The translations under genes were made by a program, and so were the position numbers. A model generated the notes under the pieces. That model ran no database searches, was not told the DNA's origin, and was given only the letters and a program-made list of their open reading frames with translations. A stretch of 64,000 nt of DNA from Candidatus Phoenicimicrobium oleiphilum (GTDB lineage: Bacteria; Atribacterota; Phoenicimicrobiia; Phoenicimicrobiales; Phoenicimicrobiaceae): contig JBDIWJ010000005.1 in assembly GCA_039638295.1 (NCBI GenBank), positions 416 to 64,415 of the forward strand, read 5' to 3'. Below are positions 7,613 to 63,342 of the stretch, in pieces (within the stretch, counting starts at the first letter, position 1; each line of letters starts with the position of its first letter).

Positions 7613-8857
7613 TTATATCTTTTGAGAAACCTCAAGTATATTTATCTTTCTTCTTTTCAATTCTTCCAAGAAGTTCTGATAGACTTTTCCTTCTATAGCA
7701 TCCTCAGGAGCAACTATGCCCTTCTTGGTTATCTCTCCTTTTCCTAACATCACAGTAGTGATAGCCTCTGGAAAAGCAGTAACTCTTGCCATTGCTGAAA
7801 TACCATTCTCAGTATCTGCCTCCTCCCACATATAATAATCAATTCTCATTTTTTGGCTATCTTTTATCCCGGTAACTGTATTCCACATTACACATACATC
7901 AGTTTCACCTTCTAATGGTTTAAGTTTAGGTGTCATTATAAAGGACAAAAACTCACGGGGAGTAATTTTCATACTTTTAAATTCTACCGGAGTAGAATCT
8001 AACATTCCACATTCCTTCAATACCTTCGCCCCCTCCCAGTGACCTGGCCAACGAATGGTCTTCTCTGCACATTCTTTAAGTTGTGGTCTGGTATAAAGAA
8101 AGCTGGGCATCCCCGGAGTAATGGCGCAGGTTAATTCTTCATCTTTACCTAATTGATTAAATCGAAACTTTTCAAGATCATCCATTGCATTTGCTTCTAC
8201 GATTTTACCATTCTTGATTACATCTACCTTGATCATATATTCTCTTAAAACATGCTCAAATGCCCAGGTAATCATATATTTTAAAGGATGATTGTTAGCA
8301 TATTCTTTTGCCGGAATACCCCCACATCTGGCTATGGCTGATTCTGCCTGGCTCATTTTTTTGATTCCTTCACCTAAAGTAATATTAGTTAACCCTGGAG
8401 CAAAACCTGCTCCATCAACAATAGTCACTCCATTCTTTATTGCTCTTTGGTGGAGTGATTCACCATATTCATCCAGGGTCATCCCATCAGGAATTTCTAA
8501 TCCTTCAACCTCATATTTATCTGGTCTTCTATGATACTCTTCCAAAATATCAACAATATTAAGTCCAGCCTCCACAGCCATATTTACTACTTTGTAGCTA
8601 CTTCTTCTATCTGGCAGAGCAATTGCGCCTACATCATATTTTTCCATTAATTTCATAGTCTCTTTTCGATTGTTTACGTCAACAATATGTAATACTACCT
8701 TATCACTGCCTATCCATTTTTTAGTCTTTTCCAGGGTATTCTCTCTCCTACCAGTAATTCCTATAATTCCTACTTCTCCAACTTTGCTGTTTTTAGCCAA
8801 ATCCCAGGCAACTGCTGAACCCATTTTGCCTGAGCCTCCAAAAACTAAAACCTTCAT
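7613..8857 (-). CDS. Saccharopine dehydrogenase-family NAD(P)-binding oxidoreductase (paralog 1; LysDH/saccharopine reductase/carboxy(nor)spermidine DH-like)
   Basis: N-terminal Rossmann MKVLVFGGSGKMGSAVA, GFAPGLTNI motif, 414 aa; first gene after a lysine riboswitch. Confidence 0.7.
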   Translation of the reverse strand: MKVLVFGGSGKMGSAVAWDLAKNSKVGEVGIIGITGRRENTLEKTKKWIGSDKVVLHIVDVNNRKETMKLMEKYDVGAIALPDRRSSYKVVNMAVEAGLNIVDILEEYHRRPDKYEVEGLEIPDGMTLDEYGESLHQRAIKNGVTIVDGAGFAPGLTNITLGEGIKKMSQAESAIARCGGIPAKEYANNHPLKYMITWAFEHVLREYMIKVDVIKNGKIVEANAMDDLEKFRFNQLGKDEELTCAITPGMPSFLYTRPQLKECAEKTIRWPGHWEGAKVLKECGMLDSTPVEFKSMKITPREFLSFIMTPKLKPLEGETDVCVMWNTVTGIKDSQKMRIDYYMWEEADTENGISAMARVTAFPEAITTVMLGKGEITKKGIVAPEDAIEGKVYQNFLEELKRRKINILEVSQKI

Positions 8858-9099
8858 ATATTTTTCCTCCTTCTTTGGTTATTTAGTTATTAAAACAGTC
8901 GATAGTGAATAGTCGTTAGTCGTTAGTTTAAAACTCAAAACTTTTTCGTATAAGATATTGCTCTTAAAGTAGGGGTCGGATTTATTCGACCTGTTTTTAT
9001 TGCGGGTTCGATTAATGAGCACTTACGATAACAGGAAATTCCTATACCATTTAGTTAACTAGCTATCTTTAAGATGACATTTGCTAATAAAAAATCTAC

Positions 9100-9365
9100 C
9101 AAATAAAAAAGGCAATTAATGATAGAGCCTTCATTAATTGCCTAACTTTGTTCCCCCTAATTTAGATGAAGTACTCTATCTTGAGGTAGCGCTCCATCTA
9201 AATCGGGGGACAGATTTGATGACAGTCTTATAGTTATTCACTATAAGCCCAGCAAGAAGATTTTATCTGATCTTTCTTGCTTCGGCGGAAATACCTTTCT
9301 GGGCAAAGTTCTAAACTATTCACCCTTACTCATTATTATCCGCGCCTCTACCTTGTATTATTTTA
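9100..9365 (-). promoter_or_regulatory. Lysine riboswitch (L-box) with intrinsic-terminator expression platform
   Basis: On minus strand: GGTAGAGGCGCGG ... CGCCGAAGCAAG ... CTGGGCTTATAGTGAATAA ... AGACTGTCATC ... GGAGCGCTACCTC (L-box conserved blocks), then antiterminator GATAGAGTACTTCATC and terminator GGCAATTAATGA-AGGCTCTATC-ATTAATTGCC followed by TTTTTTATTT (9105-9142 on + strand). Confidence 0.8.
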
Positions 9366-9485
9366 AATACAAGTAAATATTAATTTGTGAAACTTATTTT
9401 AGTAGACTTAAATTCTTAAATTACCACCTCCTCATTTAATCTACCAATTATACAATTGACCAATTTACCAATCAAATTAATGTAA

Positions 9486-10622
9486 TCACACTTTAATTAT
9501 ATTTTCTTTATAGAACACATTTCTTTTTTCTAATTCTTTCATTACCCTCTGATATACTTTATGTTCCCTGCCTATATATTCTGGAGGAGAAATCCCTTTA
9601 CGGGAATATTCTCCCTGAGCTACCAGGCGAGCCATAATTGCACAGGGAAAACCAGTCGTACGTGACATAGAGGTAGCTTCCTCATTCTCGTCATAATAAT
9701 CTAATAAATCATAGATATAACATAGTCTTTTTTCTTCTTTCTTACCTTGAACAATTACCCTCATCACTGTTAACTCTCTTTCTCCTTCTTTTAATCCCCA
9801 TTTGGAAAAAAGCAATTTAGAGGCAACATCTATAGGGCTGACTTTTACCCCTCCTGCTTCTATAGGTTTTTCATTAAAAAATCCTGTCTCTCTTAACATC
9901 CGCATCTTTTCCGCATACCCTGGATAACGCAAGGTCTTCTCTCTCATAGAGGGAATTTTAATGGTGTAAAGTAGACTACGAAGTCCATCAGTATTAAAAG
10001 CTTCTAAAGTACCAATTCCTGGTAAATCAACCAATTCAAGATCAGAAAGCGCGGGTTTTTCTACAATTTTTCCGCATTCAATTAATCTTGCCGGTCTTAT
10101 ATATTCTTCTATAACATCTTTAGGAGACCAGGCAATTTTATATTCATAAGGCCATTCTCTTATTACTGGAAGCCCTCCTACTAAAATAGTAGCACTCTCG
10201 GTTTTATCCAACAGGCTATAGACATAACCTACAATCATATGACTCATCCCCGGAGCTACTCCCATATCCACCACAGCAGTTACTCCTCTACTTTTAGCAA
10301 GCCCATCCAGGCTTAAAGTATCTTCAGCCATAAATGATATATCAACTATGTTCTTACCAGCTTCAATAACCGACCGCAACATATTAAATCCTAAAAACCC
10401 TGGAACAGCACCAATTACAATATCTTGATCAGCAACTATCTTTTTAATATCACTCGAAACAGATAAATCTGCTTTTACACCTCTTATTCCTGCATCTTTT
10501 GTTAACTTATCCAATCTTTTTTCATCAATATCTGCTACAGTTACTTGAATATTTTTATCTTTTGCTAAATCTTTGGCAATTAATCCGCCTACCAAACCAC
10601 AACCCAGTACTATTGCTTTCAT
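9486..10622 (-). CDS. Saccharopine dehydrogenase-family NAD(P)-binding oxidoreductase (paralog 2)
   Basis: N-terminal MKAIVLGCGLVGGLIAKDLA Rossmann fold, 378 aa, same family as 7613-8857 but divergent. Confidence 0.7.
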   Translation of the reverse strand: MKAIVLGCGLVGGLIAKDLAKDKNIQVTVADIDEKRLDKLTKDAGIRGVKADLSVSSDIKKIVADQDIVIGAVPGFLGFNMLRSVIEAGKNIVDISFMAEDTLSLDGLAKSRGVTAVVDMGVAPGMSHMIVGYVYSLLDKTESATILVGGLPVIREWPYEYKIAWSPKDVIEEYIRPARLIECGKIVEKPALSDLELVDLPGIGTLEAFNTDGLRSLLYTIKIPSMREKTLRYPGYAEKMRMLRETGFFNEKPIEAGGVKVSPIDVASKLLFSKWGLKEGERELTVMRVIVQGKKEEKRLCYIYDLLDYYDENEEATSMSRTTGFPCAIMARLVAQGEYSRKGISPPEYIGREHKVYQRVMKELEKRNVFYKENIIKV

Positions 10623-10649
10623 ACTTTTATTGTTTCCTTTCCTTATTTT

Positions 10650-12023
10650 CTATTTATCGCTTACTAAAAGTTTCATATATTCTCCGATTTCATTGATATT
10701 CTCTAATTCCTTAGTGGCTTTTATAATATCCTCCATTCTGGAAGGAGAGATTTTTTTCTCAGAGTTGGCTTTAAATTTAGAAATAAGTTCTTCTTCGCTT
10801 AGAGGCCGCTCCGATTGGCCTTTGGCGAAATCTTCCTGTTTTTTATATTCTCCCTTGGAAGTTTTAATGGTCACAATAGCTCGTTTTACTTTGGGGAAGA
10901 GGGCATCTATTTCAGGGTTGGCTATTACCTTAATCTTTTCGAGCAATGACCAGACAAAAGGGTCTCGTAAGGCATCTTCTTCAAAATCAGAAGGAAGGAC
11001 ATTGCCCTTAGCTACTGCAACTGCTATACAGTAGGGTAGTGAATGGTCAGCAGTCTCTTTAGTAGTAGGTTTATATTTACTGGGGTCAGAAAGAATATCT
11101 GCCCCCCGAGTTGTAGTCTCTACTAAAACTTCTTTTACTTCTTTTGGGTCAATACTATTTTCTTGCATAACTTCTAAAGCAGCAGTAATGGGCTGATGAG
11201 TTAAAGCTTCAGTGGGAAAAGCTTTATAACCACATTGATTAATCAGAAATTTTTCTCCTAATCCTTTGGTTAAAACATCTCTATCCCATTTTACTTTATC
11301 CAATACTTCAAACAATCCTTCTTTACCTTCAAATACTTCTACCGGACCGGTATAACCTCTGCTGGCCAGTAAGGCAGCCCGTACACCCGCCTCCACAGCG
11401 AAAGGATCGGCCGCATTTTTCATATTAGTAAGATGACCGGCTACTACTCCTCCTAAAGTAAAATGAGAAGAACCGCTAATCCCGAGGGCAGCGACTATCT
11501 CATCTTCGCTTAGTTCCAACATCCTTCCGGCTACTACAGGACTTACCAATTGAGTTAGGGTTGCATGATGCCAGCCTATCTCCCGAACTCCCGGGGAAGC
11601 AGCCTGACATAGACGCATCTCTAATTCATAAGCAATCACTATCCCCAACAGTACTTCTTCCCCATTTTTCTTCATAAATTCTCCAGTACTAAGGACGGCA
11701 GGGATAATATCTGAAGGATGGGAGGGATCTTGTTCCCAGTAGATGTCATTATAATCCAAAGCCCTAATAAGTAAGGAATTCAACAAAGTAGCTAGTGGCA
11801 AATTGGTTTTCTCTCCCCACCCAATAACAGTACTTTGTTTCTTTCCACCTAAATCTCGAATGTAATTATAAGCTGCTTGGGTATCTTTATTATTCAAAGC
11901 AGAAAAGGCACACCCCACACTATCTAAAAGAAACCTTTTAGCCTCTTTTATAGCTACAAAAGGAATATCTTTATAATTTAATCCGAGGGTAAACTTAGCC
12001 CATTTTTGACTTATGGTCTCCAT
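10650..12023 (-). CDS. MmgE/PrpD-family dehydratase (2-methylcitrate dehydratase-like)
   Basis: 457 aa; N-terminal FLLDSVGCAFSA and overall MmgE/PrpD architecture. Confidence 0.75.
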   Translation of the reverse strand: METISQKWAKFTLGLNYKDIPFVAIKEAKRFLLDSVGCAFSALNNKDTQAAYNYIRDLGGKKQSTVIGWGEKTNLPLATLLNSLLIRALDYNDIYWEQDPSHPSDIIPAVLSTGEFMKKNGEEVLLGIVIAYELEMRLCQAASPGVREIGWHHATLTQLVSPVVAGRMLELSEDEIVAALGISGSSHFTLGGVVAGHLTNMKNAADPFAVEAGVRAALLASRGYTGPVEVFEGKEGLFEVLDKVKWDRDVLTKGLGEKFLINQCGYKAFPTEALTHQPITAALEVMQENSIDPKEVKEVLVETTTRGADILSDPSKYKPTTKETADHSLPYCIAVAVAKGNVLPSDFEEDALRDPFVWSLLEKIKVIANPEIDALFPKVKRAIVTIKTSKGEYKKQEDFAKGQSERPLSEEELISKFKANSEKKISPSRMEDIIKATKELENINEIGEYMKLLVSDK

Positions 12024-12255
12024 TTTTTCACCTTCCTTTTAATTTGGTTAGTTGATTACCTAGTTACCTGGTTCGCTAGTTAACCGGTCTTCTAGTCATT
12101 TCAGTCGTTAACCTCTACTGTATAGGTTTGAATTTATTCGACCAAAATTATTTGGTAATCTTTTTAGCGGGCTCGATGAATCGAGCCCCTACTTCTGGCT
12201 TCTGGATCTTTAACTCGTAACCTGTAATTTATAACCCATTACTTATTACTCATTA

Positions 12256-13383
12256 CTAATTACTTTGTATTTTTCTGGCTACTTCCCTGGCTACATCTAA
12301 AGTTGAGGCTGTTCCGCCTAAATCATAGGTCCTGACTTTTCCTTCCTCAATGACCTGAGCAATAGCATTTTCTAATCTTTGAGCCAATTCTTTTTCCCTT
12401 AAGTAATCCAACATTAATTTAACTGTTAAAAGCATGGCCATAGGATTTACTTTATACTGCCCTGCATACTTAGGAGCAGAGCCATGAGTAGGCTCAAAGA
12501 CGGCATAGTCATCACCAATGTTAGCACTAGAGGCAAAACCTAAACCTCCTACCAATTGTGCACATAAGTCAGAAATTATATCGCCGAACATATTAGAAGA
12601 AACCAAGACACTATAATTTTGAGGGTTCTTAACCAACCACATACACATTGCATCTACATTGGTTTCCCACAATTCAATCCCGGGATATTCTTGAGCAATC
12701 TTACGAGCTTCTCTTATCATTAATCCACTGGTTTCTCTGATTACATTAGGTTTTTCCACAACTGTAACTGAATTCCTTTTAAACTTCTTAGCATATTCGA
12801 AGGCTTGTCGAACAATTGATTGGCAAGCTTTTCTGGTAAAAATTCGGCAGGATAGAGCAATATCTTCTAAAGGAGTATCTTTGAATCTTTTCATTTTAGG
12901 ATGATTTTTTAAAAGAGAATCCATTACTTCTTTAGGTAGAGGATGAAATTCTATCCCACTGTATAACCCTTCGGTATTTTCTCGAAAAACTACCAAATCT
13001 ATATCGTCTCTATAATTCAAAGGATTTCCTTTGTAGGCTTTGCAGGGTCTCAGGTTAGTATGTAACTTAAATTCCTGGCGTAATCTTACAATAGGGCTCG
13101 AATAGACATAACCCTTTCCTTTAACTTCAGGAGCAAGTTCCTTTTCTGCTTCCTCTTTAGGTTTAGAGGTTATTGCTCCAAAGAGACAACAATCAGTTTC
13201 TTTAAGAATTTTTATGGTCCTATCAGGTAAAGGGTTTCCTTCTTTTTTCCAAAATTTCCAACCAACATCGCCGGGTATATAATCAGCATCCAGTTTTAGC
13301 ACATCTAATACGATCTTCGCTGCCTCCATTACATCATTTCCGATTCCATCACCCGGCAGCCAGGCTATCTTATATTTTGCCAT
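12256..13383 (-). CDS. Isocitrate/isopropylmalate dehydrogenase-family enzyme (LeuB/homoisocitrate DH-like)
   Basis: N-terminal IAWLPGDGIGNDV, 375 aa beta-decarboxylating dehydrogenase fold. Confidence 0.8.
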   Translation of the reverse strand: MAKYKIAWLPGDGIGNDVMEAAKIVLDVLKLDADYIPGDVGWKFWKKEGNPLPDRTIKILKETDCCLFGAITSKPKEEAEKELAPEVKGKGYVYSSPIVRLRQEFKLHTNLRPCKAYKGNPLNYRDDIDLVVFRENTEGLYSGIEFHPLPKEVMDSLLKNHPKMKRFKDTPLEDIALSCRIFTRKACQSIVRQAFEYAKKFKRNSVTVVEKPNVIRETSGLMIREARKIAQEYPGIELWETNVDAMCMWLVKNPQNYSVLVSSNMFGDIISDLCAQLVGGLGFASSANIGDDYAVFEPTHGSAPKYAGQYKVNPMAMLLTVKLMLDYLREKELAQRLENAIAQVIEEGKVRTYDLGGTASTLDVAREVARKIQSN

Positions 13384-13386
13384 TTT

Positions 13387-13890
13387 TTATTCTCCCTTCT
13401 CTGCTCTCAATATTTTTTTAATATGAGGAATAAGCCCCCCATCTTTAAGAATTCCTAATACCGATTCCGGTAAAGGAGGGAAATTAAAAACTCCCTTTTT
13501 ACAAGATAATTCGCCTTTCTCGAAATCAATAGTAATCTCCTCACCCGGAGATACATTTTCCGCTGCTTCTTTACACTGAACCAGGGGAAGTCCCTGATTA
13601 ATAGCATTTCGAAAAAATATTCGAGAAAATGATTTGGCAACAATTGCTCCTACACCGGCATATTTTAGGCAGGTTGCGGCTTGTTCCCGAGAACTACCAC
13701 AGCCAAAGTTCCTTCCCGCGACAATAATATCTTCCTTTTTAACTTCTTTGGCAAACTTCGGATCAAGGTCTTCTAGGGCATGAAGAGCCATCTCTTTGGG
13801 GTCTGTTATGGTATAAGTATATTTCCCCGGAAAAATAACATCGGTATTTACATCATCGCCATATTTCCATACTTTTCCTTTAATACTCAT
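13387..13890 (-). CDS. 3-isopropylmalate dehydratase/homoaconitase small subunit (LeuD-like)
   Basis: 167 aa aconitase swivel domain; overlaps the large-subunit gene by 4 nt. Confidence 0.8.
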
Positions 13891-15146
13891 TTTAAATCCC
13901 CCCTTATATCAGTAATTTCACCGTAAAGGGAAGAGATAGCGACGGTTGCCGGACTAGCTAAGTAAACTTCTGCCTCTTTACAGCCCATCCTTCCTTTAAA
14001 ATTTCTATTAGCTGTACTCAAGCAAACTTCTCCCGGAGCTAAGGCCCCTTCGTGAGCTCCTAAACAAGGGCCACATCCCGGATTCATTATTACTGCCCCA
14101 CTTTTAACTAATTCCTGAAGGATTCCTAATTCCATCGCCCGGGCAAAGACCTCCATCGAGGCCGGAAAGACTAAAAGTCTAACTCCGTTAGAAATCTTTT
14201 TACCACGAAGAATCTCGCTGGTAATTTTTAAATCTTCTATCCTTCCGTTGGTACAGGTCCCAATTAATGCTTGGTTAATCTTGGTCCCTGCCACTTCCGA
14301 AACAGGTTTTACATTGTCTACTGTGTGAGGGCAGGCAATTTGAGGTTCTAAACTACTTATATCGTAATCTATGATTTTTTCATACTCAGCATCAGTATCT
14401 GACTTTATTATTTCGTATTTTTTATTGGTTCTTGCGGTAAGCCACTGTATGGTTTTTTCATCCGGTTCTACATAGCCGATCTTTGCTCCCATCTCCACCG
14501 CCATATTGCATAGAGTCATCCTGCCCCCGATATCCATATCCCTAATTACTTTTCCGCTAAATTCTACTGCCCTATACAATGCTCCATCCGCACCTAAATC
14601 CCCAATAATGTGGAGGATTATGTCCTTGGGATATATTCCGGGGGGAATTTCCCCTTTAATATTTATTTTAATAGTCTCCGGCACTCTAAGCCAGATTTCA
14701 TCTGTAGCCCATATAGAAGCTACTTCACTTCTGCCAATCCCAGTTGAAAAAGCACCAAATGCTCCATAAGTAGTGGTATGTGAGTCGGCTCCTAAAATTA
14801 AAGTCCCTGGAAGTACATAACCCTTTTCCGGTAAAACCTGATGGCAGACTCCGGTATTAATATCATAAAAATTTTCAATTTTCTGTTCCTGGATAAATTC
14901 TCTTATCTCTTTATGATTAGTAGCATATTTCTCTGTTGCTGCCGGAACACAATGATCTAGAGGTATTACTATTTTTTCAGGATGTTTTACCTTATCAATT
15001 CCAATCTGATTGAATTTTTTGGCTATAGCAGCAGTATTATCGTGAGACATTACTATATCCGGAGATACAGTTACAATTTCTCCAGCAATTACACTTCCCT
15101 TACCCGATTTAAGAGCTAATATTTTCTCTGCAAAGGTTTTTCCCAT
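13887..15146 (-). CDS. 3-isopropylmalate dehydratase/homoaconitase large subunit, short (archaeal-type, ~420 aa) LeuC-like
   Basis: Aconitase-family Cys ligand region (GTCTNGR...GCGPCLG), 419 aa. Confidence 0.8.
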
Positions 15147-15160
15147 TTTTACCCTTCTCC

Positions 15161-15691
15161 TTATCTAAATTGTTCGAAGTTAGTAAAATCAGCATGATGA
15201 ACAATAATGGCTTCCGGGATTCTCTTAGAACGATCTCCTTCCCAGGAATGAGAGGCAATAATATGCATTACTTCTTCCGGAATTCCTTGACTGTAACAAA
15301 GACCTACTCCGGATATAGGATGACGTACCAGCTTCCCCAAATTACTCTGAATAAATTTTCCGTTCTTCTCTTTATATTCTACTAACTTCCCAATATCGTG
15401 AAGCAATGCCCCGGCAATAAGATAATCCTCATTTATTTTCACTTTATCTTCATAGATGCTTTGAAGAGCTTTCGCCGCCCCTATCGAAACATTTACTACT
15501 CCCCTAATATGTTCAATCATACTACAAGGACAGGGATCAATTAATAAAGTAAAAGGCATTCTCTGCAGGTCACTCACTTTCCATCCCCCAGCAGCAAGAG
15601 CAATCTCCCAAACTTTCAAAACCTTTTCCTTCAAATCTGAATCTTTGATTAAATTAAATTCCGGAATAAATTTTAATAAATCATCTCTCAT
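15161..15691 (-). CDS. HD-domain phosphohydrolase
   Basis: HD motif (LLHDIGK ... HHAD) in 176-aa protein. Confidence 0.65.
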   Translation of the reverse strand: MRDDLLKFIPEFNLIKDSDLKEKVLKVWEIALAAGGWKVSDLQRMPFTLLIDPCPCSMIEHIRGVVNVSIGAAKALQSIYEDKVKINEDYLIAGALLHDIGKLVEYKEKNGKFIQSNLGKLVRHPISGVGLCYSQGIPEEVMHIIASHSWEGDRSKRIPEAIIVHHADFTNFEQFR

Positions 15692-15702
15692 CTTTTCCCT
15701 CC

Positions 15703-16032
15703 TTATTCCTCGTAAGGTATTTTGATCTCCAAAAGTGGAGCGTGTTGTTGAGCACCATAAACATCAGTCTCCCCGATGCTGCCTGAATCTACTGGCCTTA
15801 CAATAGTTGCTTTTATAGCATTAGCGGGGTCAAATTCTACAAAATAAAGAACTTTTTCGATGGGAACATGGTAAAGTTTGGCAATAAGTTCTTTGGTAAT
15901 TACTTTGGTTTTCTTGACTTTTTCGTAAGTTTCCTTGTCTTTAAAAATTATATCAAAGGTCAACTCAAAGGGGCCAGCATTTTTACTTCTGATTACGCTT
16001 GCTAAGTCTATAATAGAAACCTCTTTAGTCAT
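15703..16032 (-). CDS. Small DUF4387-like protein (partner of AtuA-like DUF1446 proteins)
   Basis: 109 aa, directly downstream of and co-oriented with a DUF1446-like gene; assignment by recalled family pairing. Confidence 0.4.
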   Translation of the reverse strand: MTKEVSIIDLASVIRSKNAGPFELTFDIIFKDKETYEKVKKTKVITKELIAKLYHVPIEKVLYFVEFDPANAIKATIVRPVDSGSIGETDVYGAQQHAPLLEIKIPYEE

Positions 16033-16065
16033 TTATATACTCTCCTTTTTAAATTCCTTATTATT

Positions 16066-17424
16066 TTAAAATTCCACTATTTCTATAGAAAAAAGTTCAT
16101 CAGGGTTATCGACTTCTACTAAGTGATGAATATTAAATTTATATACCGCTCCGGTAGGTATATCTGAAGGAGCATAAGGAAAAGCTAAATTACCGGCAGT
16201 AGCAACGCGCCCCCTGTAAGAATAATGCATTAAAGTAGAACGAGCAAAAGCACAAATAGTATTGGCCAGCTCCTGGTCTTTAGCCACAACTTCCAGGATC
16301 AGACAAAGTTCATGAGAGGCAATCTCTTTTCGAGGCTCTAATTCTCCCATCACTCCGTTCTTCCCATAAATATGGAAGATTAATTGGTAATCTTCCGGAG
16401 AAATATCATTAAAGTAAGTAAGTACGGTATTACGGACATGTTTTTCACATTCATCAATCTGTTTAATCATAATAGGATCTCTTACGCCAGCAATACATAT
16501 AGTCCGATAAGCCACTTTGCTGGCACCTTCAAGTTTTATATTAATGGCTTCACTCTTATTTAGTTTAGAACCCGATACCTTTACCGCTCTTTCGCTATAC
16601 TGTTCGAATTTACATCCGCTAACATCAACCATCCCTTCCGGACCAATAATATGTAACGGGCTGGATTTTTCATAAAGAGTGTGAGCAGCTACTGTGCTGG
16701 GGATACATTTTCGCAGGGCATTAGTAGGTTCTACTATAAAACAATCCTCTCTTAAATATGCCATCATACAATCAGAGGTAGTCCCGGGAGTGGAAGCCAT
16801 AGCTCCACATTCTAAAATTTTTCCCATATGCAAAGCCAGTCCGGGGTTATATCCTTCCTTAATGGGAAGAGCGGCAAACATAGCCGGATCATTGGAACGA
16901 CCGGCAATAATAACCTCCGCCCCCATCTCTAAGGCTTTTATATAAGAGTGCACTCCCATTACCGCCACAATTCGAGTAGCTTCTTCTATATCTTTAGAAG
17001 TTAAGTCGGGGACGGGACCTAAGGGTTTTATCTTTCCTTGAGCTAACTTCTTTTGAAGATAATCTTTTTCAACTTCTGCATGAATTAAAGCCATCTTAAA
17101 GTGTAGATTTTTTTCTTTAGCAATTTCTTTTACTATTTCTAAAGTCCAATTAAGATGGACTTCTGCACCAGAACCTCCAGCAGAACCGATAATAACCGGG
17201 ATTTTATGTTCGCAACCCGCTGTTAACATTAAAGTAAGGTCTTTTTTGGTTGCTTCTTTGCTTACAATACCCACTCCTGCTCCTAATTTATGGGGGCCGG
17301 CATCAGTGGAGCCGGCATCAGCAGCAATAACATGAGGTTTCTTTTCTAAACCCTTTTGAAAAGATTCTGCCGGGAAACCATATCCTAACATCCCTACCGG
17401 TGATAGAACTCTTATCTCTTTCAT
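16066..17424 (-). CDS. AtuA-like DUF1446 family protein
   Basis: 452 aa, N-terminal PVGMLGYGF...AADAGSTD pattern recalled for acyclic-terpene-utilisation AtuA/DUF1446 family. Confidence 0.5.
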   Translation of the reverse strand: MKEIRVLSPVGMLGYGFPAESFQKGLEKKPHVIAADAGSTDAGPHKLGAGVGIVSKEATKKDLTLMLTAGCEHKIPVIIGSAGGSGAEVHLNWTLEIVKEIAKEKNLHFKMALIHAEVEKDYLQKKLAQGKIKPLGPVPDLTSKDIEEATRIVAVMGVHSYIKALEMGAEVIIAGRSNDPAMFAALPIKEGYNPGLALHMGKILECGAMASTPGTTSDCMMAYLREDCFIVEPTNALRKCIPSTVAAHTLYEKSSPLHIIGPEGMVDVSGCKFEQYSERAVKVSGSKLNKSEAINIKLEGASKVAYRTICIAGVRDPIMIKQIDECEKHVRNTVLTYFNDISPEDYQLIFHIYGKNGVMGELEPRKEIASHELCLILEVVAKDQELANTICAFARSTLMHYSYRGRVATAGNLAFPYAPSDIPTGAVYKFNIHHLVEVDNPDELFSIEIVEF

Positions 17425-17504
17425 AATATATATCTCCTCACTTCTACAAGATTGTCAGGGGAGTGAGCTCCCCTCCCATTCTTAATACATTTTTCAATCT
17501 AATT

Positions 17505-18263
17505 TTATATCTTACCCAAAACTTCTCTTATGTTTCTTAAATGTTTTAGCATAGCTTCTCCAGCTTTTTTAGCATTATGTTCTTTGATGGCCTGTAATAT
17601 TGCCTGATGTTCTTGATATTGTTTTTCTCGTCTTCCTGGTATTTGCCAGGTCTTTCCTCGAGTCTCTTTTAATAGGTCTAAATGTAATTTTATTATATTT
17701 ACAAAGACAAAATTATGAGAAGCGCTGGCAATAGCTAAATGAAATTCGGTATCTGATTCTGTTTCTTTGCCATATTTTAATTCTTCTTCTTCTTCGTTTA
17801 TTTTATTTAAAGCCTTTTCAATTAATTCTATATCCTCGATAGTGGCTTTCTGAGCAGCAATTTTAGCAATTTTAACCTCAAATACCTCTCTTGCCTCTAA
17901 AAGTTCTAAAATGGAAGATTTTTTTAAACTTGAGATAATATTTTCTGTACTGTCGTGGCCATTTTCCCTTATCTCTCGAATAAATCTTCCTCCGCCCGGT
18001 TTGCTTTTAATTAAACCTCTTGATTCTAAAACTCGGAAGGCTTCCCTTAGAGATCCTCTACTTATAGACAATTTTTCAGCTATTTCTCTCTCTGGAGGAA
18101 GTTTATCACCTGGTTTTAATTTATTATTTTTTACCAAATCCATAATTTGCTCTATTACACTTTCATATAAACGAACAGGAGTAATTTCTTTAAATTCCAT
18201 ATTTTCCTCTCTTTGGGTAATTGGGTAACTGGTCGACCCACTTTTATATTCATTATATAACAT
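17505..18263 (-). CDS. GntR-family (FadR/FCD subfamily) transcriptional regulator; true start probably internal Met (MEFKEI..., ~18200)
   Basis: wHTH EREIAEKLSISRGSLREAFRVLESRGLI plus C-terminal all-helical FCD-like domain. Confidence 0.8.
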   Translation of the reverse strand: MLYNEYKSGSTSYPITQREENMEFKEITPVRLYESVIEQIMDLVKNNKLKPGDKLPPEREIAEKLSISRGSLREAFRVLESRGLIKSKPGGGRFIREIRENGHDSTENIISSLKKSSILELLEAREVFEVKIAKIAAQKATIEDIELIEKALNKINEEEEELKYGKETESDTEFHLAIASASHNFVFVNIIKLHLDLLKETRGKTWQIPGRREKQYQEHQAILQAIKEHNAKKAGEAMLKHLRNIREVLGKI

Positions 18264-18269
18264 AAATTT

Positions 18270-18322
18270 AAAAAATCAATCTTTTTCTGAAAAAAATTTT
18301 AAAAATATTTTCGGAAGTAATA
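18270..18322 (-). promoter_or_regulatory. Sigma-70-type promoter with AT-rich UP element for the GntR gene (TTGATT-17-ATAATG)
   Basis: Minus strand TTGATTTTTTAAATTTATGTTATATAATG upstream of ATG at 18263; nearly identical UP/-35 block recurs at 24862-24915 upstream of the IclR gene (TTGATT-17-ATAATA). Confidence 0.45.
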
Positions 18323-18561
18323 CCATAAATATGATGTAAGAATAAAGATGTGAGAATAAAATTGAAGATAAACAGTTAGTTTATACAAGATTATGCATAT
18401 AGTGTGCTGTAGACAATTTTATAGTAAATTATAATTCTTGTTATAATTGAATTGTAGGGGCACAATGAATTGTGCCCCCTGTTTCATCGTTTTTCATTTA
18501 TATTGTGGGAACAAGGAATCGTACCCTTATATTAACATTTTGTTTTCCGTTTAGATTACAT

Positions 18562-20400
18562 TCATGCATCTAAAAACTTAAAAGGTGAAATTATATCTTC
18601 TCCAAATTTTGCTCTGGTTTCTTTTAACCTTTCAGTCTGTGCTTCTAATTCTTTAGTAAAGGCGGTAGGCATCTTAATATTTTTAAATATCTTGTTCATC
18701 CTTTCCATCTTCTCTATGTATTTTGTCACTCTTAAGGAGAACTGCTGAATATATTCGTCCATAGTGTAATCTTTGTCCAGCTCACTGATAAATAAACTTT
18801 TTAAATCTTCATATTTGGGTATTCGGCCTACCGGAGTTTCGATGGCTTCAAATTCGTGGTGCACTCTCCCTTCAGCCCAGAGTACCCAGACTTTCTTATC
18901 AAGTTTACCGTTCAGGTAATTACCAGACTCATCTTTTAAGAAATAATTGGTAGCATAAATTTTGGGGACCTCTTTGAGGCCATCGGCAAATTTCAGGTGA
19001 TTCTCTATGTAGGTATTAAACGGTACCGAGATAAAGTCAAGATTGGCCATCGGGTTATGTTTCCTTATCCCCTGGGCACCGATAGTAGCAGAGGTAGTCT
19101 CTGATTCTACGGTAGCCCCAAGAAAGACTCCTTGGAACCAACTGAGAGATTCTACTATTGGCATAGTGGTATCAGAATCTCTTCCTCCATAGATAATGGC
19201 CTGCACAGGTACACCTGCCGGGTCATCAGCCTTGGGGTCAATATTTTCTAAGGCATTTAGTCTTATGGTGTATCTGGCATTTTTATGGGAACAATCGATA
19301 ACATTACCTTTCTTATCTTTTTTACCTTTATACCACTCTCCTGAATGATTAATGCCTTTATCCGGTATATCTTTACCCATACCCAACCAATAAGGGACAC
19401 CATCATTAACAAGTACATTAGAAAAAATAAGTTCTCTCGGAGTGGTTAGGGCTTTATATATCAAGGGATCATCCTGGGGATTTACATCCTGAATGATACC
19501 AAATATACCATTTTCCACATTTACTGCTTTTATTATCCCGTTAATTTTTTTGAGGTAGGCGATATCATCACCAACTACGGTCTGCCCAGGAATCATGGCA
19601 GTGCTGGTCTTCCCACAGGCACTGGGGAAGGCACCAGTAAAATAGGTAATACGGCCTTTTGGACCATGGACACCCATTATAAACATATGCTCAGCTAACC
19701 ACCCTTCTTCATTGGCCTTCTTGATAGCTAATCGGAAGGCTAACTTTTTTAGTCCCAGAGAGTTACCAGCATATTGATTATTCACTGAATAGACCTTATT
19801 CTCTTCCAGGTCGATGTAGATCCTCCGTTTATCTATATCTTTACTCACACCATTTTCTAATCTTCCCGCTGAATGAAGAAAGAAAAAGAAATCAGGAGAT
19901 CCATCAAGTTTTTTAAATTGTTCATAGGCTGGCCGATAGAGGATATCTTCACTATGGGCGACATAAGCCGAATCAGTAATCTGTAAGGCTAAAATCGAGA
20001 ACATAGAATTAGTAGGACCAAGAGAAAAGAACCTTACTAACATCTCTTTCCCAGCCATACTTCCGTCAAGAAGAGAATATATTTCTTTTAGGCCTTTATC
20101 TTTTTCTATCGAATTTACCTTTATCCCCCAATCTACATCTTTAGATAATAAATATCTGGTATTGGCTTTATCTCTGGCCTGATCATAATAACCATCAAAG
20201 TGAATGGTATGTCCTCCCATCTTTAACTTCTTTTCTTCACCATTGATTAAAGCCAATTCTCTTACATAGGTAATATCTTCTTTTGAGTCAGTTATCACAG
20301 TTACCTTTTCCGGTTTACAGAGCTGGATGGCCTCTTGAACCACCTTTGTAACATATTGATTATTTAGTTCTTCTAACTTCCGTAAATAATTTTTATCCAT
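18562..20400 (-). CDS. pckG: Phosphoenolpyruvate carboxykinase (GTP)
   Basis: GTP-PEPCK kinase-1a motif GAFPSACGKTSTAM, 612 aa. Confidence 0.9.
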   Translation of the reverse strand: MDKNYLRKLEELNNQYVTKVVQEAIQLCKPEKVTVITDSKEDITYVRELALINGEEKKLKMGGHTIHFDGYYDQARDKANTRYLLSKDVDWGIKVNSIEKDKGLKEIYSLLDGSMAGKEMLVRFFSLGPTNSMFSILALQITDSAYVAHSEDILYRPAYEQFKKLDGSPDFFFFLHSAGRLENGVSKDIDKRRIYIDLEENKVYSVNNQYAGNSLGLKKLAFRLAIKKANEEGWLAEHMFIMGVHGPKGRITYFTGAFPSACGKTSTAMIPGQTVVGDDIAYLKKINGIIKAVNVENGIFGIIQDVNPQDDPLIYKALTTPRELIFSNVLVNDGVPYWLGMGKDIPDKGINHSGEWYKGKKDKKGNVIDCSHKNARYTIRLNALENIDPKADDPAGVPVQAIIYGGRDSDTTMPIVESLSWFQGVFLGATVESETTSATIGAQGIRKHNPMANLDFISVPFNTYIENHLKFADGLKEVPKIYATNYFLKDESGNYLNGKLDKKVWVLWAEGRVHHEFEAIETPVGRIPKYEDLKSLFISELDKDYTMDEYIQQFSLRVTKYIEKMERMNKIFKNIKMPTAFTKELEAQTERLKETRAKFGEDIISPFKFLDA

Positions 20401-20453
20401 TTATCCTTCCTCACTTTTCCTTAAAGTCTGCCTACAATTTTATTAAAAAAACA

Positions 20454-21836
20454 TCAGCTTCTATATACTTTTACAATCTCTCCATATCCCGGAGAGACAG
20501 TTATTTCACCATCATCAAAGACCACTTTCCCTCTAACAATAGTCTTTTCCGGCTTTCCATATACTCCCCATCCGTCATATACCAGGGCGCTGTCTCTACA
20601 TTTGGTAAACATTTTATCTTTGGAAATAATGTCTTTTTTGTTAGGATCAAAAATTACAAAATCTGCATCTGAACCAAGAGCAATTACCCCTTTTTTGGGA
20701 TACAAACCAAACACTTTTGCCGGATTTTCACAGATAAGCTCAACCATTCTTTCTAATTTAATCTTTCCTTCTTTTACTGCAGTAAAAAGTAAAGGTAATC
20801 TGGTTGATAAACCTGGAAATCCTGCAGGCGGAACAAAGATATCTTCACTCCCTCTTTCTTTTTCTTCTTTAGTATAAGGAGCATGGTCACTTCCGATAAT
20901 ATCGACACTTCCGTTATTTACCATTTCCCACATTCCCTGCCGCTTTTCTTCGCTCCTTAAGGGAGGATTAACCTTGGCAAATACTCCCAATTTATTAAGA
21001 ACATCCTCATTAAGAAACAAATAATGGGGACAAGTCTCTGCAATAGCATATACCCCTTTATATTTTGCTTCATTTACTAATTCTACTACTTCCGGAGTGG
21101 TAATATGACATATTTCAACTTTCGCCCCAGTCTTTTCGGCAAAGAGTAAAATCTTAGAAGCAGTTTCTATTTCTACGACTGGTGGGCGAGATCTACCATG
21201 GTAAATTGGAGAAGTTTTTCCTTCGCTTCTTAGCTTAGCTATATTCTTATTAACCATATCATTATTTTCTGCATGAAAACCGATCATCACACCGGTTTGG
21301 GCTACTTTTTCCATAAGCTCATATTGGTCTCCGGTGTTAGGAGCAGTTAGACCGATAAATTCTTCTCTTCTCCCTGGAGGAGCCTCATGTAAAAAAGTTT
21401 TAAAGGCAACAATCCCTGACTTTGCACAGGGGATAATATCATCTAGACAATCTGTCCCCGCTGCTCCAAAAAAAGCTATATCGACTACAGTTTCTTTATC
21501 CGCAATATCCATTCTTCTTTTTACTATTTCGGGAGAATGTGGTGGAGGAACAGAGATGGGCATTTCAATTATAGTGGTAACCCCGCCCAAGGCTGCATCT
21601 TTTGAACCGCTTTCAAAGGTCTCTCTTTCATCATGTCCGGGAGCTCGGATATGTACATGAGGATCAACGGTTCCGGGTAAAACCATTTTTCCTTCTGCAT
21701 CGATAAATTTTTTAGCCTCTAATTTTTCTTTACTTATTGTGGCAATTATTCCATCTTTCACTCCTACATAACAATCTATTAATCTGTCATCTATAAATAT
21801 CTTGTCCGACTTTATTACGAGGTCAAATTTGTTCAT
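20454..21836 (-). CDS. pyrC: Cyclic amidohydrolase of the dihydroorotase/allantoinase/dihydropyrimidinase family (PyrC-like)
   Basis: Metal-binding GTVDPHVHIRAPG motif, 460 aa; immediately downstream of pyrB. Confidence 0.65.
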   Translation of the reverse strand: MNKFDLVIKSDKIFIDDRLIDCYVGVKDGIIATISKEKLEAKKFIDAEGKMVLPGTVDPHVHIRAPGHDERETFESGSKDAALGGVTTIIEMPISVPPPHSPEIVKRRMDIADKETVVDIAFFGAAGTDCLDDIIPCAKSGIVAFKTFLHEAPPGRREEFIGLTAPNTGDQYELMEKVAQTGVMIGFHAENNDMVNKNIAKLRSEGKTSPIYHGRSRPPVVEIETASKILLFAEKTGAKVEICHITTPEVVELVNEAKYKGVYAIAETCPHYLFLNEDVLNKLGVFAKVNPPLRSEEKRQGMWEMVNNGSVDIIGSDHAPYTKEEKERGSEDIFVPPAGFPGLSTRLPLLFTAVKEGKIKLERMVELICENPAKVFGLYPKKGVIALGSDADFVIFDPNKKDIISKDKMFTKCRDSALVYDGWGVYGKPEKTIVRGKVVFDDGEITVSPGYGEIVKVYRS

Positions 21837-21999
21837 ATTTTATCCTCCGCATCGTTACTTTTCAACATTCCAGTTTATATTATGCCTAATATCTCTTGGG
21901 GGCACGATGCATTGTGTCTCTACACTACTGTTTTATTTACATTATAAGTTATAATTATATTATAGCTTAATACTGCTTCGTGGAAAAATTATTATTGGA

Positions 22000-22923
22000 T
22001 TATGCTTTACCAGTAACCAATGCCAAAAGTGCCATTCTAATGTAAAGGCCATTGTGGGCCTGTCTAAAATATGCAGCCCCTTCATAATCATCAACATCAG
22101 TAGATATTTCATCTACTCTCGGTAGGGGATGAAGAATAGTAATTCCCTCTTTAGCCTGATCAATCAGGGCTCTATTGATAACATATGAACCTTTAAGTTT
22201 TTCATATTCAGCAGGATCTTCAAACCGTTCTCTTTGTATCCGGGTTACATAAACAATATCACTTATCGCTAAAGCTTCTCTTAAATCTTCAGTCTCTTCA
22301 ATTTCTGCTCCTCGACTTCTTAGGTCAGCAGTTATCTTTTCAGGCATTTGTAAAGCTTTTGGGGAAACAAAGATCATCTTATTCTTATAGAGAGCCATAA
22401 AATAACCTAAAGAATGAACAGTTCGGCCATATTTTAAGTCACCAACAAAGGCAACTGTATGTCCTCCCAAAGCTCCCTTTTCTTTGCGTATGGTGTATAT
22501 ATCTAAAAGAGCCTGGGTAGGATGTTGACCACTTCCGTCTCCAGCATTAATAAAAGGGTGAACAGCATTGTCAGCAGCAATCTGGGCAGAGCCCTTCATA
22601 GGATGACGCATAACAATGACATCAGCATAACCATCTACTGTCCTAATAGTATCGGCTAAAGACTCTCCCTTAGCTACTGAAGAACTAGCTGGATTAGCTA
22701 CAGTAATTACTCGTGCTCCTAATCTATTGGCAGCAGTTTCAAAGGAAAGTCGAGTTCTGGTACTCGGTTCGAAAAATAAAGTAGCCACTACTTGCCCTTC
22801 CATATTTCTGATTATATTTCCATCCTTAACTTGTTTTTCAAAATTTGCTGCAGTATTCATAATTATATTAAGCTCCTGAGTTGAAAACTGAGCAGTGTTT
22901 AATATATCTTTTCCTTTAAGCAT
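22000..22923 (-). CDS. pyrB: Aspartate carbamoyltransferase catalytic chain
   Basis: STRTRLSFETA, KGESLADTI, VMRHP, GDGSGQHPTQALLD, VGDLKYGRTVHSL, HPLPRVDEI match E. coli PyrB block-for-block. Confidence 0.85.
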   Translation of the reverse strand: MLKGKDILNTAQFSTQELNIIMNTAANFEKQVKDGNIIRNMEGQVVATLFFEPSTRTRLSFETAANRLGARVITVANPASSSVAKGESLADTIRTVDGYADVIVMRHPMKGSAQIAADNAVHPFINAGDGSGQHPTQALLDIYTIRKEKGALGGHTVAFVGDLKYGRTVHSLGYFMALYKNKMIFVSPKALQMPEKITADLRSRGAEIEETEDLREALAISDIVYVTRIQRERFEDPAEYEKLKGSYVINRALIDQAKEGITILHPLPRVDEISTDVDDYEGAAYFRQAHNGLYIRMALLALVTGKA

Positions 22924-27863: not shown

Positions 27864-27960
27864 TTGAGATTGCTTCCCCTATTTTCGCAGGGGCAGGCTT
27901 GCTTTGCTCCACGCAATGACACTTGGTGTTATGTCATTGTGAGGGTTAGCGAAGCAATCT
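27864..27960. repeat. Nested-palindrome intergenic element (outer 11-bp IR GAGATTGCTTC/GAAGCAATCTC; inner hairpins CCCCT..AGGGG and CAATGACA..TGTCATTG)
   Basis: Inverted repeats read directly; shares TGTCATTG...GAAGCAATCTC with element at 39033-39104. Confidence 0.5.
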
Positions 27961-28000
27961 CAAAACTATCCTACCTTAGTTAACTTAGCAGTAGTTATTT

Positions 28001-29832: not shown

Positions 29833-30068
29833 AATATTTAAAGTTACACCCCCACTTTAATCATCTCCCTTAGGGGAAGAGAAATATAGAGCTTATCCTC
29901 TCCCTCAAGGAGAAAATTTAAAAAATATTCTCAGTGGGCACGATTCATCGTGCCCCTACATTACCATTTTGCTTAATTTTTGGGTTACAATCATATTATT
30001 TATTATTCATCTTAAAAGATTCAGTAATATTATACTTTTATTAGTATAACGCAAATCAAATAAAAAGT

Positions 30069-30425: not shown

Positions 30426-30714
30426 TTCCTATAGACATATTCTTTCGTCCCATCAAGTCTCGTTCGCAACTAAACGGGCGTATGCAATACGCCCCTACTT
30501 CTGGATTCTGGCTACTGACTTCTATTTCTTTCATTCTTTACTATATACTAATTATCTTATCCGCTATAGTATATACTAATGACTATTCACTATTCGCTAA
30601 TGACTAAATTGACGGGGCAAATATCTAACCGGTAAACTACTATGTAAGCCAATTGGTAAATTGGTAGATTGGCGAATTGGTCAATTTATTTTTCTTTTTT
30701 CGATTCGAAAGTAA

Positions 30715-39032: not shown

Positions 39033-39104
39033 GTCATTGCGAACGAAGTGATGAAGCAATCTCAATTCCGAGATTGCCACGCTCCCTACGGTCGTTCGCA
39101 ATGA
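39033..39104. repeat. Nested-palindrome intergenic element (outer 13-bp IR GTCATTGCGAACG/CGTTCGCAATGAC; inner hairpin GCAATCTC-AATTCC-GAGATTGC)
   Basis: Read directly; related to element at 27864-27960. Confidence 0.5.
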
Positions 39105-39158
39105 CTTTATAGACAGGCTCTATGAAAACAATGAACGCCTGTCCTACAGAATTTGAAT

Positions 39159-39635: not shown

Positions 39636-39755
39636 CTACACTCTCCTTTTTAGTAAGTAATAAGTAATGGGCGATGAGTGATAAGTAATTAGTAACAAGT
39701 AATAAGTTATATGCAATTCGTGTATCGACTAATTGGTTAATTATTTTCTCTCCTA

Positions 39756-50021: not shown

Positions 50022-50282
50022 TTTCCTTATTGCCTCCTTTTTTAAATTTTAACCATTTTTAAAAAACTATTATTTTAAATAAGCATCCACCTCCTTAACA
50101 AAGTTATCTATTTTTGGTATATTCATTATATTTTAAAAAAATATTCTGGTCAAGAAGGGTGTTTGTAGGGGTATGGCGCATCGTGTCCCTACTTCTGACT
50201 CCTGGCTTCTGGATTCCGATTCCTTCTTTTATAACTAAACGTTAAATGCTAAATGCCATAAATTCCTTGTTAGATGTATTTA

Positions 50283-61291: not shown

Positions 61292-61306
61292 GGATTTAAA
61301 TAAATT

Positions 61307-61583
61307 TTATATAAGATAGTAAGTCTGAAAGCCTTTTTTTATAAGGGTTTTGGAGGTAGATTGCGAAATAATGCGTATAAGAAAAAATTTTTGCCTTTGC
61401 CATACTTTATCCCTCGAAAATTACCTTTTTTTAACCAATTTTTTCATACTCTCAAATGCTGAAAGTGGCTATTTATAAGGGGTTTTAAGATTTTAGAGGA
61501 GTAAAAATACCTCAAAATCAGGGTAGTTAAATAGCTACACTTTTCTAAATTTAAACGCTAAAAAAGGCACTTTACGTGTGGTT
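61307..61583. repeat. Copy 1 of a ~277-bp direct repeat (ends ...GGCACTTTACGTGTGGTT); internally contains two CTGAAAG-N-TTTATAAGGGTTTT sub-repeats
   Basis: ~88% identical to 63343-63618 by eye alignment. Confidence 0.7.
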
Positions 61584-63141: not shown

Positions 63142-63342
63142 TCCCTTGCTTTTACAAAACTACGGCATTATGCTTTATTGCCGTAGATTTGTATATTTCT
63201 TTCCTTATTATACTTCTCTTCTCTATTTTTTCAAGTATGCATCTAATATTTTAAATATATTTTTATAGGAAGCATCAAGCGACCCCATAATTTAACATTA
63301 ATAAAATTATAATATAAATAAGCTTTTTGGCAGGGATAAACT

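Follow-up and report, generated by a model that had tools for sequence, protein, structure and literature searches.

The stretch of DNA examined here, called the window throughout, comprises 64,000 nucleotides of contig JBDIWJ010000005.1 (assembly GCA_039638295.1) from Candidatus Phoenicimicrobium oleiphilum, a member of the Atribacterota. It has a GC content of 36%, and all 56 of its substantial open reading frames (ORFs) are on the minus strand. Since the GC skew of the plus strand was uniformly negative (-0.16 to -0.24), the genes occupy the G-rich strand, presumably the leading one. The gene content is that of ordinary anaerobe metabolism with regulators, and includes genes for phosphoenolpyruvate carboxykinase (PEPCK), an allantoinase/dihydroorotase-like amidohydrolase, aspartate carbamoyltransferase, a PrpD-like protein, isopropylmalate/isocitrate dehydrogenase, GntR, ModE and a MoeA-like protein. 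For two of the encoded proteins, public databases hold entries from metagenome-assembled genomes labelled 'Candidatus Atribacteria bacterium'. No tRNAs were found in the window, and the only Rfam match at gathering thresholds was a lysine riboswitch, with no known RNA family at the elements that are our subject: a family of short GC-rich hairpins, lying between these genes, that had been noticed in an original prediction made from the sequence.

GTAG-tagged hairpins in the window

Four intact hairpins were identified (12169-12192, 18454-18478, 29936-29959 and 30476-30498), each consisting of GTAG and the arrangement GGGC-N4-loop-N4-GCCC. The pattern GGGCN{10,13}GCCCCTAC, applied to both strands, gave four matches where 0.01 were expected from 100 shuffles, three on the plus strand (12169-12192, 29936-29959 and 30476-30498) and one on the minus strand (18454-18477). 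An independent search for perfect GC-rich hairpins returned the same four, with stems of 8-9 bp and loops of 3-4 nt, and the predicted family is therefore real. Folded as single-stranded DNA, these hairpins reached -8.4 to -10.4 kcal/mol with z-scores of -2.9 to -5.1, and a covariance model trained on 50 distinct members of the family detected them with E-values of 5.6e-13 to 1.6e-6. The same model gave 7e-4 at 21900-21923, a marginal 0.16 at 50165-50189 and a weak 5.7 at 8969-8991, the last because it had been built from another stem class. The prediction had listed at least six copies and one related unit whose stems differ yet stay paired. Pairing held for the four intact copies only; the sequences at 21898-21923 and 50165-50192 folded no better than shuffled sequence and are decayed copies, and the related unit at 8969-8991 belongs to a second hairpin class.

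In all four intact hairpins the GTAG/CTAC tag is flush with the stem, unpaired and present on one side only. The two-sided GTAGGGG/CCCCTAC core that had been proposed did not survive, as its literal pattern had no match in the window and a two-sided tag occurs solely in the decayed 'double-foot' copy at 50165-50192. A unit is thus made up of an unpaired GTAG 'foot', a stem base of three or four G-C pairs, a variable inner stem and a loop of 3-4 nt. The inner four pairs of the intact copies (TCGA/TCGA, ACAA/TTGT, ACGA/TCGT and GTAT/ATAC) are each perfectly complementary, and the variable inner stem defines the subfamilies GCTCGAT, GTCGGAT, GCACGAT/GCACAAT and GCGTAT.

Altogether the window holds the four intact and at least six decayed copies (Table 1), every one intergenic and placed between co-directional minus-strand genes, and more are present in related Atribacterota contigs. 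Three decayed partners came to light in addition to the copies first listed, and with them three head-to-head doublets (12120-12192, 8969-9026 and 18454-18526) in which the GTAG ends point outward and one half is decayed; head-to-head doublets also occur in relatives (loci L089, L124, L130 and L170). Kilobases of sequence separate the copies, which occupy different intergenic regions and do not form the regularly spaced repeats of a CRISPR array.

Table 1. Hairpins, inserted units and heptamer arrays of the window (REP, repetitive extragenic palindromic sequence; E, covariance-model E-value)
Feature	Coordinates	Strand	Remarks
Class-B REP	8969..8991	+	GTAGGGGTCGGATTTATTCGACC; one G.T stem pair; E 5.7
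Decayed class-A REP	9002..9026	-	GTAAGTGCTCATTAATCGAACCCGC; head-to-head partner of 8969-8991
Decayed class-B REP	12120..12143	+	GTATAGGTTTGAATTTATTCGACC; head-to-head partner of 12169-12192, 25-nt spacer
Intact REP, class A	12169..12192	-	GTAGGGGCTCGATTCATCGAGCCC; GTAG, 8-bp stem, 4-nt loop; 39.3 bits, E 5.6e-13; -9.8 kcal/mol as DNA, z -3.8
Heptamer array (CCAGAAG)x2	12192..12205	-	abuts GTAG and shares its G; 0 mismatches
Intact REP, class C	18454..18478	+	GTAGGGGCACAATGAATTGTGCCCC; sole intact copy with GTAG on the plus strand; 38.4 bits; -10.4 kcal/mol, z -4.4
Decayed class-C hairpin	18507..18526	-	GGGTACGATTCCTTGTTCCC; tag lost; head-to-head partner of 18454-18478
71-nt insertion with decayed class-C REP 21898-21923	21884..21954	-	GTAGAGACACAATGCATCGTGCCCC; E 7e-4; no significant fold
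Insertion unit of ~100 nt ending in intact class-C REP 29936-29959	29916..30018	-	GTAGGGGCACGATGAATCGTGCCC
Intact REP, class D	30476..30498	-	GTAGGGGCGTATTGCATACGCCC; 8-bp stem, 3-nt loop; 23 bits, E 1.6e-6; -8.4 kcal/mol
Heptamer array TCAGTAG-CCAGAAT-CCAGAAG	30498..30518	-	abuts GTAG tag
Decayed 'double-foot' REP	50165..50192	.	GTAGGGGTATGGCGCATCGTGTCCCTAC, GTAG...CTAC; plus-strand pairing via several G.T pairs; E 0.16; z -0.4 and -0.7
Heptamer array TCGGAAT-CCAGAAG-CCAGGAG-TCAGAAG	50192..50219	-	abuts GTAG tag

The compensatory stem changes that had been predicted were borne out in an alignment of 50 distinct GTAGGGGC-N12-GCCC sequences. In this alignment 96.9% of cells were paired, compared with 83% after shuffling and 29-44% when the partner columns were slid, and both-sided changes occurred at all five variable pairs. 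A further 26 distinct sequences of the same form were taken from the flanks of loci found in the cross-phylum scan described below and were unconstrained by the search pattern; in 20 of them all four inner pairs were Watson-Crick. These changes mark subfamilies of REPs and not a conserved RNA.

The conserved tail predicted beside three copies, CTACTTCTGGnTTCTGG, was also found (12189-12205, 30495-30511 and 50189-50211) and proved to be an array of heptamers in tandem, reading (CCAGAAG)2-4 along the gene strand, the last G of the array being the G of GTAG. At no more than one mismatch, (CCAGAAG) arrays occur in the window solely beside these three hairpins. Other tandem arrays of period 7 or 8 crowd its intergenic regions (TAAGTAA x8.3 and AATTGGTA x4.5 among them), often directly after a stop codon (8910-8927, 12056-12082, 12238-12265, 30575-30607, 30651-30686, 39654-39711, 39758-39776 and 50235-50256), and in relatives the intergenic regions that contain them can be as short as 11 nt or exceed 300 nt. 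We take these arrays to resemble the short tandemly repeated repetitive (STRR) heptamers of cyanobacteria such as Nostoc, though the host is a non-cyanobacterial anaerobe. Such heptamers reportedly fill AT-rich intergenic regions of cyanobacteria, with small GC-rich palindromes, the small dispersed repeats (SDRs), nested in them. The heptamer context in the window is like that of STRR and SDR sequences, but the palindromes of the window carry GTAG tags.

The anatomy of the hairpins is that of the GTAG-tagged REP superfamily, which includes E. coli REP/BIME, Pseudomonas REP and Stenotrophomonas SMAG sequences and is characterized by complementary-stem subfamilies, by head-to-head, tail-to-tail and head-to-tail dimers, and by a location mostly between genes that run in one direction or converge (Di Nocera, De Gregorio and Rocco 2013, BMC Genomics 14:522; PMC3733652). 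Both have a GC-rich stem-loop (8-9 bp stem, 3-4 nt loop) with an unpaired GTAG at one end, complementary-stem subfamilies, single copies or head-to-head dimers 9-27 nt apart, a position between unidirectional genes and several classes per genome. The window copies differ in lying in an AT-rich genome and in the fusion of the tag to tandem heptamer arrays. The doublets resemble REPINs (REP doublets forming hairpins), in which two inverted REPs with a short spacer likely constitute the mobile unit and decay of one partner leaves a lone REP (Bertels and Rainey 2011, PLoS Genet 7:e1002132), as at three sites of the window. The halves of a REPIN are near-identical, whereas those of a window doublet belong to different hairpin classes (GCTCGAT and GTCGGAT).

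Gain, loss and decay at orthologous sites

For comparison we used 80 orthologous Atribacterota loci (L125-L204), obtained in a metagenome scan with the amidohydrolase at 71-92% protein identity; they are copies of one 20-kb neighbourhood and amount to ~910 kb in all. Contigs with identical window proteins, which are 99.8-100% identical to the window (L001-L006), were left out. Orthologous intergenic sites of this lineage show REP gain, REP loss and decay by mutation. At site C (window 21837-21999) the intergenic region measures 82 nt and is empty in ~21 relatives, and in its filled form, found in the window and nine relatives, it measures 155-167 nt, with an insert of ~81 nt ending in GTAGGGGCACGATGCATCGTGCCC. 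The window copy at this site has decayed through G/C-to-A/T changes and its fold is lost. The 71-nt insert of the window is flanked by perfect 9-bp direct repeats, ATAATATAA (21875-21883 and 21955-21963), of which the empty allele has a single copy. On a neighbour-joining tree of the flanking gene, filled and empty alleles were interspersed and did not polarise insertion versus deletion; this distribution fits recurrent loss or recombination.

Site D (29916-30018) is filled in the window and in L138 and empty in L130, L144, L170 and L176; in L125, L139 and L145 the occupant is another GTAG hairpin, GTAGGACAGGCG...CGCCTGTC. The inserts at sites C and D have in common a leader of at least 38 nt together with the REP, a combination also present in L133, L148, L167 and L197, and the copied unit is therefore longer than the hairpin. 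At site A (12024-12255) the intergenic region is only 11-14 nt long in L167 and L168 and reaches 232-337 nt in the window, L130 and L170. The latter two relatives carry an intact doublet there (19996-20044 in L130 and 20562-20610 in L170), composed of GTAG-GGGCTCGATTCATCGAGCCC, 9 nt and GGGTCGGATAAATYCGACCC-CTAC, plus heptamers; other REP classes are found at this site in L125, and L141 has heptamers only. One and the same site thus holds different REP classes in different relatives, and the spacers of doublets range between orthologues from 9 to 27 nt. Because copies are present or absent at orthologous sites and undergo decay, these elements behave as mobile or dispensable DNA and not as conserved terminators. 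Such presence/absence polymorphism provides markers for telling strains apart within this uncultured lineage, which is widespread in the subsurface.

Another family of GTAG-tagged hairpins, GTAGGACAGGC(G)...GCCTGTC, was observed in the window at 39105-39147 (minus strand, with an enlarged loop) and in L016 near position 5620. It is this family that fills site D in the three relatives where the window has a class-C REP. Two long composite palindromes also lie in the window, at 27864-27963 and 39033-39105, with the arms GAGATTGCTTC/GAAGCAATCTC and GTCATTGCGAACGA/TCGTTCGCAATGAC, and a related motif is present at site A of L130. Similar repeats of the form TCATTGCGAG...GCAATCTC occur in many sediment metagenome-assembled genomes (MAGs).

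Association of the REP type with RAYT genes

We scanned one genome per species for the core GTAGGGGCACGAT..ATCGTGCCC with the pattern GTAGGGGCWCRATNNATYGWGCCC, for which we estimated about one chance match. It occurred in no fewer than 118 stretches, which represent 15 phyla or more, with a GC content of 32-74% among the matches listed; these counts are lower bounds and are ascertained through the chosen stem pattern. The matches listed include Acidobacteriota, Chloroflexota, Thermodesulfobacteriota, Cyanobacteria, Atribacterota, Clostridia, Omnitrophota, KSB1, Verrucomicrobiota, Bacteroidota/Rhodothermales, Ignavibacteria, Elusimicrobia, Zixibacteria, Gemmatimonadota, Armatimonadetes and Leptospiraceae, and at least 82 single-foot and at least 43 double-foot (GTAG...CTAC) copies are among them. 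Confinement of the copies to the window, with covariation at chance level, had been named as evidence against the family; the core is spread far beyond the window and its covariation exceeds that of shuffled sequence. The results add to the evidence for one REP core common to very distant bacteria. In a Chloroflexota chromosome (L063, 6358-6953) three double-foot copies lie exactly 284 nt apart, and from this regular spacing and their similar flanks it follows that the REP is there embedded in a longer tandem repeat.

Five of the 118 core matches listed fall within or beside a gene of 0.55 kb, a placement that would exceed chance by orders of magnitude. In L012, L024, L093 and L107 the palindrome is contained in an ORF that has an HUH motif, and in L122 it is directly upstream of such an ORF. 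All five ORFs belong to a single family (WQRNYYEHIIR...EYIQNNP), marked by the motifs NH.H, WQ and YIxxNP, and Pfam Y1_Tnp (PF01797) scored above its cut-off in three of the five scanned. A profile search returned 8000 homologues, many of them labelled 'REP element-mobilizing transposase RayT' (RAYT, REP-associated tyrosine transposase). In nearly all of the best 120 of these 8000, the sequence RGTMHRAPT, RGTLQRAPT, RGTARRAPT or VGARHAVPLQ stands between the HUH motif and FGKP, and this segment is the palindrome translated. The REP found at site C in the relatives of the window is, letter for letter, the 'RGTMHRAPT' palindrome.

Members of TnpA-Y1 subclass 2.4 (RAYT group 4) have the motifs NH[IFV]H, WQ and YIxNNP and are patchily distributed over many phyla; they are associated with 'canonical long' REPs that have three consecutive G-C pairs at the stem bottom, a 5' GT[AG]G and 'double foot' GTAG...CTAC forms, and their tnpA-REP genes contain REPs inserted in frame in the segment from HuH to Y (Quentin et al. 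2018, BMC Genomics 19:475; PMC6006769). The window copies have the same three G-C pairs, 5' GT[AG]G and double-foot variants as the REPs of this subclass (Quentin et al. 2018; Bertels et al. 2017), and differ in being mostly single-foot and in their extra leaders or heptamers. The REP type of the window is therefore the one that flanks, and is embedded in frame within, RAYT/TnpA-REP subclass 2.4 genes in other phyla; REPs both flanking and inside a RAYT gene were seen in L122, L213, L214 and L217, all from phyla other than that of the window.

We consider it likely that the hairpins are GTAG-tagged REPs, some of them arranged as REPIN-like head-to-head doublets, that are mobilised as single-stranded DNA by RAYT in low-GC Atribacterota. 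The original prediction had offered a REP- or MITE-like repeat as one option, and this option is borne out by the GTAG tag, the covariation, the doublets, presence and absence, decay, and identity with RAYT-associated REPs. On the strength of that identity we infer mobilisation by a RAYT acting in trans. The hairpins would act as single-stranded DNA, with the RAYT, an HUH/Y1 nuclease, recognising the stem and reading GTAG as a guide tetranucleotide. The enzyme would then cut and rejoin the DNA, probably at the replication fork, and the hairpin with some flanking DNA (38-nt leaders, heptamer arrays) would be copied into AT-rich intergenic DNA. A hairpin placed between co-transcribed genes could secondarily serve as an mRNA 3' stabiliser or attenuator, a role by which the family would not be maintained. 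An asymmetry of G.T versus A.C pairs could tell an RNA from a DNA strand, and here two class-B copies were opposite and allowed no inference.

Several observations weigh against this reading. A search of the 64-kb window and of the ~910 kb of related contigs, using an HUH-motif regular expression and phmmer on six-frame ORFs, found no RAYT. The association with a transposase that had been proposed for checking is thus seen with RAYT genes in other phyla and not in the window or its relatives. The other suggestion, that a structure-specific protein binds the hairpins, agrees with REPs being substrates of HUH/Y1 RAYTs, but no such protein was found for this genome. An Atribacterota homologue does exist (P0114/P0121, from Atrimonas thermophila and a 'Candidatus Atribacteria' genome), but this sole RAYT found in the phylum belongs to another lineage, with a genome of 48-50% GC, and has no flanking REPs; protein searches and contig look-ups for a RAYT of the lineage gave solely this Atrimonas-type gene and a 37-45% GC lineage without a tie to the window. 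The perfect 9-bp direct repeat around 21884-21954 is not expected of single-strand transposition of the IS200/IS605 type, and the inserted units of 71-100 nt are longer than a bare REP. Between the 38-nt class-C leader and RAYT coding flanks no significant similarity emerged (JS1 units at z < 2; a single borderline value, 2.9). Finally, GTAG lies on the gene strand in all single copies, where replication and transcription are inseparable as all genes are on the G-rich strand, and the copy count rests on 64 kb of the genome.

The 37-45% GC lineage is represented by L213 (372-1110), L214 (354-745), L217 (10287-14373) and L218 (10326-11430), and its RAYT gene lies between NAPRTase and YggS-like genes. 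Dispersed REP/REPIN copies outside the gene in L213, L214 and L217 are bordered by 30-55 nt with homology to the part of the RAYT coding sequence that surrounds the in-frame REP (local alignment z 16 and 9.7), and a piece of the gene together with the palindrome has therefore been copied several times nearby.

It is conceivable, though we regard it as doubtful, that the in-frame REP/REPIN of subclass-2.4 RAYT genes is a master copy that is transferred horizontally with the gene and re-seeds a REP family in each host. If true, this would account for the GTAGGGGCACG...CGTGCCCCTAC core being present in 15 phyla or more, with this Atribacterota lineage among its hosts, for the RAYT coding flanks on the dispersed copies just described, and for the continued pairing of a domesticated transposase with its non-autonomous partners as they are transferred horizontally. 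On that view the heptamer arrays joined to GTAG could be traces left by the same enzyme or sites that it prefers.

The GTAG-REP type is already known. Its reported hosts are Proteobacteria, Cyanobacteria, Chloroflexi and the Planctomycetes-Verrucomicrobia-Chlamydiae (PVC) group, with Atribacterota not among them, and a full-text literature search for Atribacter and extragenic palindromes together returned no paper; the occurrence in Atribacterota is previously unreported. It extends the GTAG-REP/RAYT subclass-2.4 system to another deep-branching phylum, and such hairpins in Atribacterota (JS1-type) MAGs should be annotated as REP-type repeats and not as terminators or novel RNAs.

Alternative explanations and neighbouring repeats

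The best surviving alternative, which we nevertheless judge improbable, is that the hairpins are functional RNA, either intrinsic terminators of an atypical kind or elements that stabilise 3' ends by blocking exonucleases, kept by selection on expression, with the likeness to REPs being secondary. Their location between co-directional genes and the fixed orientation of single copies relative to transcription are what this explanation expects, and E. coli REPs are known to act on mRNA 3' ends (10.64898/2026.03.23.713779). It also draws on the region after the PEPCK gene, where relatives keep, at a conserved position, a hairpin flanked by A/T runs, AAAG-GGGTCGGA...TCCGCCCC-CTTT, with compensatory variants and a stem of the class-B type. 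The lack of a U-tract noted for most copies in the original prediction was confirmed, no T-tract following any intact copy on the sense strand, where the tails read GCTAAAAAG, GTTTAGTTG, ACTGAGAAT and CTACAATTC. A terminator scan of 8800-22100 flagged no REP hairpin on the minus (sense) strand; it flagged antisense orientations and the riboswitch terminator at 9143-9110. Furthermore, many close relatives have empty alleles at sites A, C and D, where the region can be as short as 11-82 nt, the stem at 21898-21923 was lost without replacement, the doublet at 8969-9026 lies in a 5' leader, and the same sequence is found inside RAYT coding regions of other phyla. The option that these are in the first place unusual Rho-independent terminators is not supported, given the missing T-tract, the absence from orthologous regions of close relatives and the lost stem; a secondary effect of the hairpins on mRNA 3' ends is possible.

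The terminator-like post-PEPCK hairpin lies ~60 nt past the stop codon in L125, L137, L141, L146, L162, L167 and L175 and is deleted in L168. The equivalent position in the window (18454-18530) is occupied by a REP doublet instead, which suggests that terminator hairpins and class-B REPs interconvert. The doublet at 8969-9026 is bounded on one side by the lysine riboswitch (9179-9358, 111 bits) and the riboswitch terminator, and on the other by the regulated gene, which starts at 8857; its insertion might alter riboswitch-controlled expression.

We think it very unlikely that the copies belong to a transposable element of the miniature inverted-repeat type (MITE), ~70-100 nt long and mobilised by a DDE transposase of the classical kind, the GC-rich hairpin being merely internal. 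Inserted units of 71-103 nt, the 9-bp direct repeat around 21884-21954 with its single copy in the empty allele, and a leader of at least 38 nt common to two independent insertion sites are all features that a MITE would show. The ends of the units, however, have no convincing terminal inverted repeats (a match of ~5 bp by inspection, where a MITE would have 15-30 bp), the insertion at site D has no clear target-site duplication, and no DDE transposase is present in the annotated neighbourhoods of the window. The 9-bp repeat could instead have been a deletion substrate, given the interspersed filled and empty alleles, and the part that is conserved and covaries is the GTAG hairpin itself, identical to RAYT-associated REPs elsewhere.

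It is just as improbable that the hairpins are small dispersed repeats of the cyanobacterial kind, spread into heptamer arrays by templated repair or gene conversion without a dedicated transposase: they do abut or interrupt such arrays ((CCAGAAG)n-TAGGGG at three window sites and (GTAATAT)n-GTAGGGGCAGAC in L125, L145 and L168), period-7 and period-8 arrays run throughout the intergenic regions, and a given site can hold one hairpin class in one relative and another class in the next, but the GTAG tag and the linkage to RAYT in other phyla provide a more specific explanation, and cyanobacterial SDRs are classed as untagged REP-like sequences (Di Nocera et al. 2013, PMC3733652).

Apart from the hairpins, a direct repeat of ~290 nt with 85-89% identity was observed in the AT-rich end of the window, its two copies (61300-61583 and 63336-63618) lying 2 kb apart and flanking two small ORFs (61875-62363 and 62530-63141).

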